From: a virus
Taxonomy: Duplodnaviria; Heunggongvirae; Uroviricota; Caudoviricetes
IMG/VR virus record: IMGVR_UViG_2531839468_000018
Location: 1 to 23,016 of that record
Length of the DNA: 23,016 nucleotides
Direction: 5' to 3' (one strand)
Shown here: piece by piece, positions 10,188 through 14,950 of the stretch
How positions within the stretch are numbered: the first letter of the stretch is position 1
Layout of the letters: each line of letters begins with the position of its first letter
Notes under the pieces: generated by a model
What the model saw: only the letters and a program-made list of their open reading frames with translations
Database searches by the model: none
Told to the model about the DNA's origin: nothing
Translations under genes and position numbers: made by a program

Positions 10188-10404
10188 CCCTTCCCTTATG
10201 GCTAGATTGCGAGAGGTGCTTAACGCGATTTTCAGCGCCCCCCGATCTGGAAAATCCAGAATCCCCAAATATCAGCAAGGAATTTTCTTGCGTAATCAAC
10301 ATCGTTTTTACCTATTAAATCATTACACAGAAAGCCTTTCTGTAATGTCTCTCACTAAACTGTGAACCGCCCCGGGTTTCCTGGAGAGTGTTTTATCTGT
10401 GAAC

Positions 10405-11292
10405 TCAGGCTGCCAGATCATCGTTTCCGATGGAAGCATAATAAGCTTTTTCTGCTTCTGCCGGGGGAGTATGGCCCAGCCTTTCCAGCAATCGTCGATT
10501 GTTATACCAGTCCACCCACGTGAGTGTGGCCAGTTCCACTTCTGCACGGTTTTTCCAGCTCTTACGGTGTATTACCTCCGCTTTGTAAAGACCATTGATG
10601 CTCTCCGCCATCGCGTTGTCATACGAGTCGCCAGTACTCCCTGTTGATGCCAGTAATCCGGCTTCCTTAAGCCGCTGCGTGTAGGCCAGCGATACATACT
10701 GAGAACCTTTATCACTGTGATGGATTGTGCCGGACGGCCGACGGGCCCACAACGCCTGCTCCAGTGCATCCAGCACGAATGTTGTTTCCATGGATGATGA
10801 GACCTGCCATCCCACGATGTATCCGGCGAACACATCAATGATGAACGCCACATAAACGAAGCCCTGCCATGTGCTTACCCAGGTAAAATCAGCCACCCAC
10901 AACTGGTCTGGACGTTCTGCCACGAACTGACGGTTTACGCGGTCGCATGCGGCAACGGCTTTCCGGCTGACGGTAGTGCGGACCTTTTTACCCCGGAGAA
11001 CACCGGCAAGTCCCATAACCGCCATGAGACGTGCCACAGTGCATCTGGCCACTCTGATACCTTCCCGTAACAACTGACGCCAGACTTTACGCACACCGTA
11101 TACCTTGTGATTTTCATCGTATACGCGCTGTATCTCTTTCTTCAGCCAGTCATCGCGCTGCGCACGGGCACTGCGTTTATCCGGATGATGTCGCTGTTGC
11201 TGACAGTGGTAATACGTTGACGGGGCAATATGCAGTTCGCTGCATAGCGGTCCGACCCCGTACTGCTCACGCAGCTTATCCAGCAGCGGCAT
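10405..11292 (-). CDS. IS629-like transposase OrfB
   Basis: [40 protein letters not shown]... with DDE integrase core (..WVADFTWVSTWQGFVYVAFIIDVFAGYIVGW..HSDKGSQYVS..YDNAMAESINGLYKAE..). Confidence 0.85.
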   Translation of the reverse strand: MPLLDKLREQYGVGPLCSELHIAPSTYYHCQQQRHHPDKRSARAQRDDWLKKEIQRVYDENHKVYGVRKVWRQLLREGIRVARCTVARLMAVMGLAGVLRGKKVRTTVSRKAVAACDRVNRQFVAERPDQLWVADFTWVSTWQGFVYVAFIIDVFAGYIVGWQVSSSMETTFVLDALEQALWARRPSGTIHHSDKGSQYVSLAYTQRLKEAGLLASTGSTGDSYDNAMAESINGLYKAEVIHRKSWKNRAEVELATLTWVDWYNNRRLLERLGHTPPAEAEKAYYASIGNDDLAA

Positions 11293-11618
11293 TATTTTTT
11301 CCAGAGGCGGTCGAACTCCGCCTTCGCAAAATAAGCGGAAGCCTGGCGAAGGATATCGTTACTGCGGCGCAGTTCACGATTTTCACGCTCCAGCTCTTTC
11401 AGACGCTGACGTTCAGCGGTGGTGAGCCCTCCATCACCGCCCCCGGTATCCCGCTCATGCTGGCGAACCCAGACACGCAGAGTCTCCGGCGTACAGCCAA
11501 TCTTTGGAGCAATGGAACAAATTGTCGCCCATTGTGAGTCATATTCGCCCTGACTTTCCAGAACCATACGGGCTGCCCGTTGACGGACTTCAGGGGAAAA
11601 ACGAGTATTTTTAGTCAT
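11292..11618 (-). CDS. IS629-like transposase OrfA (HTH / leucine zipper)
   Basis: [61 protein letters not shown]...; ATGA overlap with orfB. Confidence 0.85.
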
Positions 11619-11975
11619 CCTGTTTACCTCTTTCTCAGGGAGTTTAGTCTCCAGGATTCCCGGGGCGGTTCACTTTCACTAAACACGAGAATGATCGGTT
11701 TTATGTCGGATCAGATGCTAGAAACAGCACCACGTCTCACAAGGGCTGTAAGCGATGAAACCAGTGTTTATGCGGGTGCAGGTCAAAATATAGGCCAAAA
11801 TCCATTTAACATAATAATCGTAATATGCACTAAGGAACACATAGAACGCCTTGAATTGATGTATCAGGGGAAAAGTGATGGATTTTTTACGTAGGAGCAC
11901 GAGAGGGCTTCTGTTGACTTTTGTGTGCTATGAAATATAATTAAAGGTTTTTGTTTTTATCGTGTGATGTAGTGG

Positions 11976-12414
11976 ATTACACAGGGGGATAGATTAAATG
12001 GTGTTCTGTTTATACAGGTTTATTTGTTAGATCAACAATTTGGCATTTCTAAACAGATGTTTGAACGTTGCCAAATGTATTGACAACACAAGAAAAGGGC
12101 TTGCTATGCCACGCATTACACGGAATAAGGCTGTAAAAACAAAATAAATTTTAAAATTTGCACAAACGAGAAAACTCGTTCAGAAACAAGCAGAACAATT
12201 TTTAGCCAACAATTTCTGATGGTGCTCTGTAAGCCGCATTACACAAGGCTTTGCGAAAGTGATGTAAAAGTGAAGAAAGTAAGAATTGCACTTTAAGCTA
12301 CTTTTCATTGGATTTTTTAGTATGGAATTACACAGGAATAAGTTAGGGATATTCTATGATTTACACAGGGAATATAGGGGGATTATGGCACACACATAGA
12401 AAGGCATTACACAG
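11976..12414. repeat. Dispersed direct copies of a 9-11-bp motif ATTACAC(A/G)G(G); further copies at 10321, 12996 and inverted copies 12952-13075
   Basis: Copies at 11976, 12115, 12238, 12317, 12359 (ATTTACACAGG) and 12406; three share the extension ACAC(A/G)GGAATA(A/T)(A/G). Confidence 0.6.
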
Positions 12415-12498
12415 AGTGAGTGCTATGTGACAAATGGATGTAACGAGAGGTTACATTCAGCTATCTGAAATGCTCTCTGTAAGAAAGTTGGTAGTAAC

Positions 12499-12607
12499 GG
12501 TAGGTCATAGTGAGCTATGGGGTAGGTCACTGTGAACTAGGGGGGTAGTTCACTATGAGCTAGGGGGTAGGTCATAGTGAGCTAGGGGGTAGGTCACTGT
12601 GAACTAC
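12499..12607. repeat. Five head-to-tail 22-23-bp repeats (GGTAGGTCAYWGTGARCTAGGG), each with an internal dyad; iteron/operator/centromere-like
   Basis: Units at 12499-12520, 12521-12543, 12544-12565, 12566-12587, 12588-12607; immediately followed by a ~70-bp tract that is almost pure A/T (12610-12680). Confidence 0.8.
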
Positions 12608-13694
12608 AATAAGACTATTAATAAAACTATATTAGATTATTAATTAGATCATAATAATAATATTCTTTATATCTATATATATGATCTTTTGCCTTCCGGC
12701 GTTAGCTTCACTCTCTGGCAAGCAGCCTTACTCCGCTACCTTTCGGGCTTCGTGGCTGGCCCGTTCCGCTCACACCGAAAGCAAAGCGTTACTTTCTTCG
12801 TGTAACTATCGTTGGCGGTAACGCCCACGAAGAAATACTATTGCGCTGTGCGCAGAAGAGTAATCACCTAACCAATCATACTGATTGCTTACGTGTTAAC
12901 TCTATCTCTCTACTCTTAATTACCCTCCTACATTTAATAACTCTGTTATTCTCTGTAGTTGTGTAATTACTCGAAGAGAGAGCGGCTAAAGCTCAATTAC
13001 ACTCTGCTTTCCTCGTGTAATTTCACTAAGCCTCAATACAATTCCACTTTCTACATTCTGTAGTCGTGTAATTGTTTTCGGTGGAAAAGCCAGAGGCGAC
13101 ACCGAAAGAGAATTCTGATCTTATTAATCTTATCTATCTTAGTTATCTTACTTACTTTATCCACTTTATTATTAATAATAGCTTTATAAGCTCTGTGTAG
13201 CTCTCTGACGCAAGAAACAGCATTCAGGAAGGGAATCACCTTAGAAAAGTGTTCTTTGCGTCATAATGTGTTTTATGAAGGATTCAGAGGTGTTTCATAA
13301 CAGGAGTGTATAGAGGATACTTTAGGTAATTAAAAATAAGGGGTCTAAATGCTTCTCTAACAGCATTAAGCAGGGTAGGGAATGGAAACGCATTGCCTAC
13401 ATATATAATCTCACTACAGGGCTTTACAGAGCGTTTTATAAAGTGACTCTCTATCTTATATCTACCATTACCTTTTCATATACCTAACAAATACAAAATA
13501 AGCCCCTTAAATAAGCCTCTGGCGAGCTAAACAACCTCTACATAAGAGAATGTATTGCTTTTATCAAAACTTCGTTAGAACGTGTTTTAGAGCGTTTTAG
13601 ACAATAATGAAGAATAGCACTACACAGGAGAGCACGAATTGCTAAGAAAAAATGTAAGTGCATGAAAAAGATCAGATTTTTTATGAAAAGGGTA

Positions 13695-13723
13695 TTGACA
13701 AATGTTTCTTTATATGTAATAAT
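13695..13723 (+). promoter_or_regulatory. Sigma-70-like promoter (TTGACA, 17 bp, TGn-AATAAT) upstream of the early gene train
   Basis: Perfect -35 TTGACA at 13695-13700; extended -10-like TGTAATAAT ending 13723; first gene starts at 13834. Confidence 0.4.
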
Positions 13724-13833
13724 AGGTATTAGAGGGACAGAAAAACATTCTTCTCTAAATAATCAAAATCAATGCACTTTGAAGCCGTCAGGCTTGCAAG
13801 GTGTTTTTCTTTTAACTGAATAAGGAGTTTTTT

Positions 13834-14022
13834 ATGAAATGGTTTACCCCGGAGCACGTCATCTCGGCATTTAAAAAAGGTGAGCTAACACGCCACCAAA
13901 TAGTAATGAATCGTAATATGGCAAGGAGTCGAGGTTATCCAGAGCGAGCAGCTTGCTTCAATGAAGCACTCAAGATTATTGATGAATTAAGAAAAAATGA
14001 AAAAGAATCTGAAACAGAGTAA
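13834..14022 (+). CDS. Small hypothetical protein (62 aa)
   Basis: ATG 6 nt after consensus AAGGAG; first ORF of a co-directional train. Confidence 0.55.
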   Translation: MKWFTPEHVISAFKKGELTRHQIVMNRNMARSRGYPERAACFNEALKIIDELRKNEKESETE

Positions 14023-14041
14023 AGAATAGAAGGAGAAAACT

Positions 14042-14209
14042 ATGAGCGAAACCAAGAAACCAATTCCGCGCACTTACCTACACGTTGACCCTGAAATCTT
14101 CAAGGTTTTATTTGCTGAAGCCAAGAAAAGGCAAATTATGGTCAGTGATTTGATGTTAGAAATCATTACTGAAGCAGCAGAGAACATCAAACAAAAAAAG
14201 GGTAAGTGA
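14042..14209 (+). CDS. Small DNA-binding protein, probable ribbon-helix-helix (Arc/CopG-like) regulator (55 aa)
   Basis: ATG 14042, 6 nt after AAGGAG; MSETKKPIPRTYLHVDPEIFKVLFAEAKKRQIMVSDLMLEIITEAAEN: basic N-terminal strand then two short helices; below the ORF-track cut-off. Confidence 0.5.
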   Translation: MSETKKPIPRTYLHVDPEIFKVLFAEAKKRQIMVSDLMLEIITEAAENIKQKKGK

Positions 14210-14260
14210 TCCTCATTCACTTTAGTAGCGCATTAAGCGTGATTTATAAGGAGATTTTTA

Positions 14261-14950
14261 ATGATTAATCAACTAACTTTTACAAAACACTATGACACGT
14301 TTGATAATGTATCAAAGATTTATTCTGATAAATTCCCTCAAGGAAAAGATTTAGAACTATTACATATTGTGCTTTATTTTCGATTCCTTAGTTATCAGGA
14401 AAACAACCTTAATTGTTATGAAAGTCACGAAACATTAGCTAAGATTTTTAAGTCTTCAGCGTCAACAATTAAACGTAAGATAAACGATCTTAAAGAGATG
14501 GGATTATTAGAAACATCCCCACATCCTGATCCGTATATTTCATCTTTGATTTACAATGCTCTCCCTCTCACAGATGCACATATTACTCCCCCAGGAGAAT
14601 CATCACTCTCTGATCTTTCTGAGGCAGAAGAAGCACAGGAACAACCTAAAGGCCATAAACAGCCTTCTTTTGATGTTCTTGATGATTGGGATGCGCCTTT
14701 GCCGTGGGAGACGGAAGAAACACCTGTTTCATCAAGTGAAAAGGTAGCTAATGATAATGAGGAGGATGTGTTAGAGAATTTTGCCTCTCTTATCTGCCAG
14801 CAGAAACACACCAGAACAGGAGGGGCATCATTTATAGAATTTGCAAATTCACTAGCTTATAGACACGGGCTAAAACGACCAAATGGTATTGAGGCATATT
14901 TTTCTAAGAATTACCCAAATGTGTATGATGACTTTGATATTCCATTTTAA
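14261..14950 (+). CDS. Winged-helix DNA-binding protein, replication-initiator/replisome-organiser-like; acidic C-terminal half ending in an SSB-tail-like DDFDIPF
   Basis: ATG after TAAGGAG; N-terminal ..CYESHETLAKIFKSSASTIKRKINDLKEMGLLE.. is a wHTH signature common in phage O-like initiators; last residues YDDFDIPF* resemble E. coli SSB C-terminus DFDDDIPF. Confidence 0.6.
   Translation: MINQLTFTKHYDTFDNVSKIYSDKFPQGKDLELLHIVLYFRFLSYQENNLNCYESHETLAKIFKSSASTIKRKINDLKEMGLLETSPHPDPYISSLIYNALPLTDAHITPPGESSLSDLSEAEEAQEQPKGHKQPSFDVLDDWDAPLPWETEETPVSSSEKVANDNEEDVLENFASLICQQKHTRTGGASFIEFANSLAYRHGLKRPNGIEAYFSKNYPNVYDDFDIPF

Follow-up and report, generated by a model that had tools for sequence, protein, structure and literature searches.

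What is the function of 2.2 kb of DNA in which no credible open reading frame (ORF) can be found, carried by a small island in the chromosome of Escherichia coli? The question is posed by positions 11673-13833 of a 23,016-nt stretch (IMG/VR virus record IMGVR_UViG_2531839468_000018, positions 1 to 23,016), the whole of which was analysed and is called the window here; the window is E. coli chromosome adjoining the tRNA-Thr gene thrW. A preliminary description of this DNA had recorded five tandem 22-bp dyad repeats, an A/T tract and a dispersed ATTACAC motif, and had proposed a theta-type replication origin from the combination of iterons and A/T tract. Comparison of the region with its relatives, and with phages, supports that proposal. 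We consider it highly probable that 11673-13833, together with 9845-10362 on the other side of an IS629 insertion, forms a cis-acting control region with an iteron-type replication origin at its centre. This reading draws on the covariation of the repeats with an island-encoded protein, on the matches of this protein to replication initiator families and on its SSB-like tail.

Iterons, A/T tract and a covarying island protein

Tandem Repeats Finder (TRF) reports a 22-nt unit (GGTAGGTCACTGTGAGCTAGGG) in 4.9 copies at 12499-12606 (score 144), with unit starts at 12499, 12521, 12544, 12566 and 12588. All five units contain an internal TCAYWRTGA dyad, and the array originally described is confirmed in full. 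A period of 22 bp puts such sites on one face of the helix, as in the iterons of R6K, pSC101 and RK2. The neighbouring tract had been called almost pure A/T, which slightly overstates its composition: it is present, and 88% A+T over 83 bp, with two GATC sites. The region thereby combines what characterises an iteron origin, namely three direct repeats or more, 17-23 bp long and roughly two helical turns apart, with an A/T-rich DNA-unwinding element directly beside them and, as judged by covariation alone, an element-encoded initiator that matches the repeats.

In relatives of the island, other repeats stand at the same position, in arrays of two to six copies that always abut an A/T tract. Five types of iteron unit (A to E) can be distinguished, and the tract adjoins the cognate array in every one of them. 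It is at the same time the least conserved block of the region (90.3%), as would be expected if its composition, and not its sequence, is constrained.

The candidate initiator is a 229-aa protein with an N-terminal HTH_36 domain. Its best match among PHROGs is family 270, 'replication initiation protein' (5.8e-9), accompanied by other O-like and DnaD-like families; a comparison with PDB sequences returned no match, and NCBIfam added nothing. Across the relatives, the protein consists of one of five N-terminal types joined to one of two C-terminal types, and the type of the proximal iteron equals that of the N-terminal domain in all 32 of the non-identical loci compared (12 of type A, 3 of B, 8 of C, 4 of D and 5 of E). 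The correspondence is kept across nine combinations of N-terminal type, C-terminal type and right-hand module: types C and E are each found with both C-terminal types, and type A with both right-hand modules. The early guess that the array is bound by the adjacent winged-helix protein fits this pattern, since that protein is the proposed initiator.

Both C-terminal types, otherwise unrelated, end in D-x-(I/L)-P-F (DDFDIPF, EDFDIPF, DSLPF). In the window's protein, the C-terminal DDFDIPF (14930-14950) resembles the tip of E. coli SSB, ...MDFDDDIPF. Through this tip, SSB docks PriA, the chi subunit, primase and further proteins of replication.

To the left of the active array, the window retains a single type E iteron (12437-12460), which to all appearances is a remnant of another origin specificity; the same unit forms the active array in two relatives (L024 and L031; L numbers denote loci of the comparison set). 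Such non-cognate relics, in one to four copies left of the active array, follow the fixed order E-A-D-B-C over the 32 loci. Some relatives retain a whole second array with its own A/T tract (relic examples are L003:4859-5205, L010 and L030).

The layout resembles that of theta origins (R6K, pSC101, RK2, F and P1; lambda O with ori-lambda; RSF1010 oriV) in its direct repeats at about two helical turns, its adjacent A/T-rich unwinding tract and its proposed cognate winged-helix initiator. As in lambdoid O proteins, the N-terminal domain would set specificity and the C-terminal domain would recruit the replisome. Unlike plasmid and lambdoid theta origins, that of the island is normally integrated, is paired with an initiator that has an SSB-like tail, and retains relic iterons of other specificities in a fixed order.

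Phages that share DNA with the island

When the initiator was compared by tblastn with the phage collection, one phage matched: Escherichia phage inny, a virulent myovirus with a genome of 147 kb, assigned to the genus Justusliebigvirus in the subfamily Stephanstirmvirinae. Its 367-aa protein inny_184 carries two HTH_36 domains followed by a nuclease domain (MUG113, 25 bits against a cut-off of 22.3; T5orf172, below threshold; PHROG 681 'endonuclease', 3.9e-18), and proteins homologous to the nuclease part carry annotations as homing or GIY-YIG endonucleases. Similar chimeric proteins occur in further phages (Table 1), with domains 82-99% identical to the N-terminal domains of the satellite initiators. 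Closely related phages, whose flanks are 98-99% identical, differ only in the first domain of the nuclease. One of them is a metagenomic phage with flanks 98-99% identical to inny, whose type A copy shares 99.5% DNA identity over 616 bp with window positions 14030-14645; a type E satellite and inny share 626 bp at 97.6% identity. The small 55-aa protein encoded upstream of the initiator, for which Pfam, PHROGs and NCBIfam gave no family match, is 100% identical over 53 aa to inny_185 (inny 120587-120769), encoded directly upstream of the phage nuclease gene. A copy of a satellite regulator may, for this reason, be expressed by the phage as well.

A helper-phage nuclease with a DNA-binding domain copied, to judge from its sequence, from the initiator is thus at hand. 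Its architecture is that of the nuclease Odn of phage ICP1, and on this ground the iteron arrays are the presumed targets of phage 'origin-directed' nucleases. Iterons of types A, B, D and E were not found in the 147-kb inny genome. Six loose-pattern matches to type C iterons in that genome were rejected, being GGCGGGAAATGGTTTCCCGCC hairpins in 5' leaders with different flanks. These six copies of the hairpin GGCGGGAA(A/G)TGGTTTCCCGCC (inny 127797, 130682, 131563, 133871, 135605 and 136464; L039) lie between promoter-like sequences and the ribosome-binding sites of small early genes, and look like a repeated phage leader element.

The island shares more than DNA-binding domains with these phages. 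Its gpE-like major capsid protein is 22% identical, end to end, to the head protein inny_96. The 609-aa tape-measure-like protein is 71% identical to inny_105 over its first 42 aa and 30% over 308 aa, and the Dit-like protein is 61% identical to inny_106; profile matches of this pair are PHROG 16051 (2.7e-53) and Dit_like (3.4e-29). The order of the structural genes is equal in island and phage, with inny_105 and inny_106 adjacent, and the island carries just a subset of them.

A further sequence connects the left part of the non-coding region with the ends of phage genomes. Forty consecutive positions of the window are identical to positions 318-357 of phi92 (NC_023693), a segment that straddles the inner end of the 343-bp direct terminal repeat (DTR) of phi92 (DTR-L annotated as 1-343). 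A 201-bp piece of inny around its own copy of the 40-mer (138625-138661) is found in 57 phage records at a minimum identity of 95%, and both satellite lineages carry the 40-mer with 0-3 mismatches. In the related phage BME3, PhageTerm delimits a 342-bp DTR (PMC12210895). Because the shared sequence spans the boundary of a genome end, it makes a strong candidate for the place where the terminase of the helper phage recognises or cuts the DNA, and would then serve as the island's packaging site. The match emerged only from direct comparison with a whole phage genome: megablast of the non-coding region against the phage collection gave no match, and blastn against phages gave only a 46-bp match (E 1e-3). 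Two shorter resemblances concern the 1.8-kb non-coding region of inny near its terminal repeat. Positions 13328-13349 agree with inny 137363-137384 at 21 of 22 bases, which we treat as unproven since one of 20 shuffles scored equally, and 13579-13591 agree at 13 of 13 bases with the same spot (137356-137384); by shuffling, both are borderline. Sites of the lambda cosN or P2/P4 cos kind were not found.

Other satellites offer points of comparison. Like phage-inducible chromosomal islands (PICIs), capsid-forming PICIs (cfPICIs) and P4-like satellites, this is a small integrated island with an integrase, a replication module of its own and a probable dependence on helper virions, and like cfPICIs it encodes its own capsid protein. 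Its gene content is unrelated to theirs: hallmarks of the PICI, cfPICI and P4 types (alpA, pri-rep, terS, sid/psu/delta) gave no family matches, and neither a Stl-type repressor nor a terminase small subunit nor a cos site was found. The homologous phages, moreover, are virulent myoviruses of 145-150 kb and not temperate ones.

The parallel with the Vibrio cholerae satellite PLE (PICI-like element) and its phage ICP1 extends to the mechanism proposed here. In the account of Barth et al. (2020) as cited in PMC8263062, Odn joins a RepA_N-like domain to a T5orf172 nuclease and cuts the iterons of the PLE origin; PLE origin type and RepA N-terminal domain covary, and the origin lies inside a large non-coding region (PMC8263062). 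The island resembles PLE as an integrated satellite of a virulent myovirus with its origin in a large non-coding region, with semi-palindromic iterons and with an initiator whose N-terminal domain covaries with origin type (and would bind it) while the C-terminal part is shared. The phi92-like phages resemble ICP1 in encoding a chimera that joins initiator-like DNA binding to a nuclease of the T5orf172/GIY-YIG type. The initiator gave no RepA_N match, but HTH_36 and the O-like and DnaD-like PHROGs only, and the system would therefore work like PLE without being a PLE. The best nuclease match is to MUG113, and there are five specificities here against two in PLE. Unlike Odn, the phage nucleases have two tandem DNA-binding domains, a variable one and one of type C. 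Phage and satellite share DNA that is 97.6-99.5% identical and includes the 55-aa gene, and capsid, tape-measure-like and Dit-like proteins are encoded by the island itself. Finally, PLE and ICP1 belong to Vibrio, whereas the present island resides in E. coli.

With restrained confidence, we lean towards a wider interpretation, in which the island represents widespread, undescribed E. coli satellites of virulent phi92-like phages (Justusliebigvirus, Phapecoctavirus) and the two parties are in conflict at this non-coding region. The phages would repeatedly capture the initiator's DNA-binding domain and the 55-aa gene, giving rise to two-headed origin-directed nucleases, and the satellites would swap origin and initiator specificity among five types, leaving the E-A-D-B-C relics behind. 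The region would in addition hold a new, highly conserved structured element of 430 nt, acting as a priming signal or a regulatory RNA, as well as a copy of the site at which the helper's terminal repeat is cut.

Iteron origins are already known, and PLE and ICP1 provide a known case of a satellite and a phage in conflict over an origin. What appears to be new is the E. coli host, the different protein families, the five specificities, the two-headed nucleases, the near-identical DNA of phage and satellite, and the fact that the island has capsid- and tail-related genes to itself. In the searchable literature, the coverage of which is incomplete, 'origin-directed nuclease' occurs in Vibrio work only, and no report was found that links satellites with phi92, rV5, Phapecoctavirus, Justusliebigvirus or Stephanstirmvirinae; a prior description is possible. 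An iteron origin alone would be ordinary. A second, independent conflict of the PLE/ICP1 type would be less so, if the interpretation is true, and it would be found in a host in which genetics is easy. Phages of the genera concerned here (phi92-like phages and Phapecoctavirus) are under evaluation for use in therapy and in biocontrol. Were the islands to restrict such phages in the way that PLE restricts ICP1, the type of island and the type of phage nuclease would jointly predict host range. Modular five-way specificity, shared near-identical DNA and ordered relics would also make this an unusually readable record of an arms race.

Block R1, the ATTACAC sites and competing explanations

Two elements of the region lie outside the array and its tract. 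The heptamer ATTACAC occurs in 12 copies in the 23-kb window against 3.0 +/- 1.8 expected, a number reached by none of 100 shuffles. Ten of the 12 are inside the non-coding region, on the plus strand at 10322, 11976, 12115, 12238, 12327, 12406 and 12996 and on the minus strand at 12961, 13015 and 13066; all of those left of the iterons are on the plus strand, and three of the four to the right are inverted. The preliminary count of at least eight copies of ATTACAC(A/G)G(G) holds for this 7-mer core, the 9-10-mer having only four exact copies (ATTACAC(A/G)G within 11673-13833), and the TCTGTAGTYGTGTAATT repeat pair reported at 12952 and 13057 is real. The positions of the motif are conserved in relatives; the second satellite lineage has only 2-3 copies, none of them inverted. 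A phage derivation of the motif was discarded, as inny, with 29 copies where about 30 are expected, shows no enrichment of it.

The second element, block R1, follows the A/T tract and folds strongly, with a minimum free energy of -159.8 kcal/mol for the minus strand (z -9.5) and -130.1 kcal/mol for the plus strand (z -5.7). Its first 180 bp (12691-12870) show 98.6% identity across 16 loci and are the most conserved non-coding block, above both the C-terminal half of the initiator and a 62-aa gene (92.7% each). R1 is present in 439 genomes. Its counterpart in the second lineage, R2, which is not reliably alignable with it, also folds well (z about -4.8), without strand asymmetry. Compensatory changes were seen in none of the 134 predicted pairs of R1, because the divergence of the sequences (94-100% identical) is too low, and a search of 11673-13900 against Rfam 15 gave no match at gathering score, the listing up to E 5 holding just a chance miRNA match (E 2.5). 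R1 may equally well be a single-strand priming signal or a structured RNA. Placed next to the unwinding tract, a priming signal would agree with the layout and with the SSB-like tail; the hairpin-rich segment beside an A/T tract recalls the single-strand initiation sites of RSF1010 (ssiA/ssiB) and of plasmid R1 (the G-site), which are precedents for such a signal.

Much of the 2.2 kb could consist of structured non-coding RNA or single-stranded DNA signals, with the minus strand of R1 as the core and ATTACAC/GTGTAAT as pairing elements, as in the CI RNA immunity of P4. The asymmetry between the strands of R1 speaks for this, as do the conservation of its G+C-rich half, the highest of any non-coding block, and the folding of R2 despite its unalignable sequence. 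One-sided changes preserve minus-strand pairing in eight of ten cases, and the left and right ATTACAC copies would be mutually complementary on one transcript. The non-coding region of PLE is, furthermore, reported to encode a regulatory small RNA. Against it stand the missing Rfam family, the lack of compensatory changes, the want of a clear promoter or terminator bracketing R1, the strand symmetry of R2 and the scarcity of ATTACAC, with no inverted copy, in the second lineage. We regard this explanation as rather unlikely, though worth keeping in mind, and it is compatible with an iteron origin.

The repeats themselves admit of three other explanations. They could be an operator array, with the helix-turn-helix (HTH) protein acting as a transcription factor for the island's promoters and no replication involved. 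Dyad symmetry is typical of operators, a repressor-operator pair would covary in specificity as well, a promoter-like site lies upstream at 11914, and RefSeq uses the name 'helix-turn-helix domain-containing protein' or 'transcriptional regulator'; yet 1.1 kb separates the array from the operon promoter, each of the five types has an A/T tract directly beside its array, the best family matches of the protein are replication initiators, and its SSB-like tail points to replisome contacts. A phage would also gain little by cutting an operator, though any cut kills the element, and we consider this account improbable. It is slightly harder still to credit the repeats as a packaging site and the 229-aa protein as a factor resembling a small terminase, its N-terminal HTH on pac repeats and its C-terminal part on the large terminase of the helper. 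An HTH at the N-terminus and a modular build are likewise seen in small terminases, SaPIs (Staphylococcus aureus pathogenicity islands) are examples of satellites that encode their own, and the 40-bp match to the DTR boundary suggests that the island borrows phage packaging. That match, however, places the phage-shared candidate packaging sequence elsewhere, at 10204-10243, no terminase family in Pfam, PHROGs or NCBIfam matches the protein, its existing matches are replication initiators, and its tail is SSB-like, unlike a terminase-binding motif. A partition centromere of a plasmid-like maintenance system, finally, had been thought equally possible from the tandem repeats and the small ribbon-helix-helix or HTH proteins nearby, which do resemble parC/parS loci. 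We find no support for that view and hold it to be scarcely credible: the island's proteins include no ParA, ParM or TubZ NTPase, the island is integrated at thrW with an integrase and attachment (att) repeats, and 858 of 860 matching places in complete genomes are chromosomal.

An iteron-type origin remains the preferred reading, and several observations weigh against it. The HTH_36 match of the 229-aa protein is marginal (E 1.7e-5; 24.9 bits, just below the Pfam cut-off of 25), and RefSeq calls the protein 'transcriptional regulator' or 'hypothetical'. The 32 loci are phylogenetically non-independent, so that independent support amounts to about nine recombinant backgrounds. DnaA boxes (TTWTNCACA), which many but not all iteron origins have, were not found in the region; this does not exclude an origin, since those of lambda type lack them too. 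Between the initiator gene and its iterons are 1.65 kb and other modules, and the gene neither contains nor directly adjoins the origin as in plasmid and lambdoid systems. An origin leaves the ATTACAC motif and block R1 unaccounted for. As to the conflict with phages, IS629 parts the candidate packaging site from the origin in the window, and this copy of the island may be impaired; in addition, the phage gene that combines types A and C has an 8-bp deletion and a frameshift in the sole available assembly.

From the repeats, their covariation, the sequence identities and the domain architectures we infer the following course of protein binding, DNA melting, factor recruitment, induction by phage, cleavage and packaging. 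The island, integrated at thrW, would act as a satellite of virulent phi92-like phages (Stephanstirmvirinae), held silent by the operon promoter and leader terminator (13510-13833) until it is induced. The N-terminal winged-helix domain of the initiator would then bind the five type A repeats (12499-12609) and melt the adjacent A/T tract, the D-x-(I/L)-P-F tail would recruit replisome or priming factors, and the conserved hairpin-rich block at 12691-13115 might guide priming. The 40-bp copy of the helper's terminal-repeat boundary in the left part would serve packaging. Phage nucleases built with the DNA-binding domain of the initiator would be directed at the contact between initiator and iterons, and this would explain both the five interchangeable specificities and the relic iterons.

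The island, its borders and further elements

The island is bounded by a 20-bp direct repeat (ACTCCTATTATCGGCACCAT; 20/20 identical) and measures 13.4 kb with IS629 and 12.1 kb without it. From window position 9035 on, the sequence aligns to the last 46 nt of tRNA-Thr in strains MB06234 and KSC64; positions 1-9034 are filled by another island, integrated in tandem at thrW. In that unrelated upstream island, the Rfam family IS009 (213.9 bits) matches at 3735-3933. Matches to the IHF consensus (WATCAANNNNTTR) were found only beside the att sites, directly after each core (9088-9100 and 22484-22496), which fits integrase-mediated recombination. Table 1 collects the features of the window and of the related loci and phages.

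Table 1. Coordinates of features; positions are those of the window unless a locus or phage is named
Feature	Position	Strand	Remarks
Left attachment core ACTCCTATTATCGGCACCAT	9062-9081	+	3' end of thrW remnant, left island border
52-aa ORF	9686-9844		
Non-coding region (less IS629)	9845-13833		
Tandem 10-bp repeat ATAAATAGCC	10134-10170	+	3.7 copies, TRF score 67; left non-coding part
40-bp sequence identical to phi92	10204-10243	-	40/40 to NC_023693 positions 318-357; candidate packaging site
IS629 insertion, 1,310 bp	~10362-11672	-	3-bp ACT target duplication; outside the system proper
Sigma-70-like promoter TTGACT-16-TATAAT	11914-11941	+	Predicted; 11/12 consensus; points into ATTACAC zone and iterons
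Left ATTACAC(A/G)(G/A) cluster	11976-12412	+	11976, 12115, 12238, 12327, 12360 (TTTACAC variant), 12406
Relic non-cognate type E iteron (TGTAACGAGAGGTTACA) and GGTAGTAACGG	12437-12498	+	
Five type A iterons, 22 bp, GGTAGGTCAYWGTGARCTAGGG	12499-12609	+	Putative binding array for initiator N-terminal domain
A/T tract	12608-12690		Proposed DNA-unwinding element
Block R1, G+C-rich, ~430 nt	12691-13115	-	Strongly folding; holds three inverted ATTACAC copies
Two tandem G(T/C)GTTTTAGA copies	13582-13601	+	Upstream of operon promoter, in block conserved in both lineages
Main rightward operon promoter TTGACA-17-(TG)TAATAAT (TGTAATAAT)	13695-13723	+	Predicted; 11/12, extended -10 TG
Leader hairpin (13-bp stem, 13774-13804), then UUUUUCUUUU	13774-13814	+	Between promoter and first gene (13834)
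Rightward operon of small genes	begins 13834	+	
Small protein, 55 aa	14042-14209	+	Ribbon-helix-helix-like by eye only
Proposed replication initiator, 229 aa	14261-14950	+	N-terminal HTH_36 type A, acidic linker, C-terminal domain ending DDFDIPF
Major capsid protein, gpE-like	17049-18077	+	Phage_cap_E 3.7e-16; distant homologue of phi92-like head protein
Tape-measure-like protein, 609 aa	18381-20210	+	Homologue of inny_105
Dit-like protein, 237 aa	20246-20959	+	Homologue of inny_106
Tyrosine integrase	21041-22405	-	Right island end; Phage_integrase 1.7e-17; RefSeq annotation in L002
Right attachment core	22461-22480	+	Right island border
Iteron type A unit			GGTAGGTCAYWGTGARCTA
Iteron type B unit			ACCCCTATCAAnnnTGATA
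Iteron type C unit			TAGGAAATGAGTTCC
Iteron type D unit			CCCCCACAGAATTCTGTTA
Iteron type E unit			TGTAACGAnnnGTTACA
Phage nuclease inny_184	L033:2414-3517		Type E, 88% over 145 aa, and type C, 91% over 93 aa
Phage nuclease muut_154	L034:1228-2226		Type B, 88%, and type C, 91%
Phage nuclease Mt1B1_P17 QNJ49226			Type D, 82%, and type C, 85-88%
BI-EHEC unannotated ORF	L036:1414-2379		Type D, 86%, and type C, 90%
Protein of metagenomic phage (145,728 bp)			Types A and C
Chimeric nucleases (loci listed without a phage name)	L035:1414-2400, L054:5001-6054		
Serine recombinase of relatives	L004:3331-3870, L006:3194-3751, L028, L029, L032		

IS629 is missing from two otherwise 100% identical loci (L001 and L002), and the non-coding region of about 2.7 kb that it was thought to split is indeed continuous in KSC64 and MB06234, two strains that match the window here at 100% identity. 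At 11221-11337, its expected place within the insertion, lies the programmed-frameshift element of IS629, the ALIL pseudoknot (119 bits). The tandem ATAAATAGCC repeat to the left is shared with the relatives L005, L019 and L024.

The absence of a credible ORF from 11673-13833 was borne out by our search, with the amendment that the minus strand holds two weak ORFs and not a single one, of 60 aa at 11718-11900 and of 62 aa at 13051-13239, both with a GTG start. A 104-aa ORF with a TTG start begins inside IS629. Hidden small genes were considered and rejected, the ORFs of at least 25 aa in the window and one relative being short, unconserved and without context. RefSeq annotates nothing in the non-coding region in any genome among the matches listed.

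Both ends of the 2.2 kb are conserved between the satellite lineages. Block 11673-11983, which contains the predicted promoter at 11914, is about 95% conserved in both. The last 330 bp or so (13510-13833) are conserved in the two lineages as well, alignment A2 being invariant from about 13510. The latter segment holds the predicted strong operon promoter, whose -35 hexamer TTGACA is conserved in both lineages, and upstream of it the tandem G(T/C)GTTTTAGA copies, a possible regulator site; in L019 and L024, TRF detects GCGTTTTAGA twice. The leader hairpin between promoter and first gene (dG -17.5 kcal/mol, z -3.6) has a stem that is invariant and a loop that varies between the lineages. With a G+C-rich hairpin, a U run, a promoter upstream and the first gene downstream, the leader has the makeup of an intrinsic terminator, and an attenuator or antitermination checkpoint would be the natural role for it.

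Of 5,426 complete E. coli genomes, 733 contain pieces of the non-coding region; these include O26, O103, O111 and O104:H4 strains. A scan of one genome per species with two exact 8-residue peptides, which is not exhaustive, returned three loci, two in Escherichia and one in a metagenome-assembled genome labelled Bacillota, possibly misassigned. Some relatives encode, immediately to the left of the non-coding region and on the opposite strand, a serine recombinase of 180-185 aa (Resolvase domain and HTH), which is absent from the window's island and may resolve multimers where it occurs.

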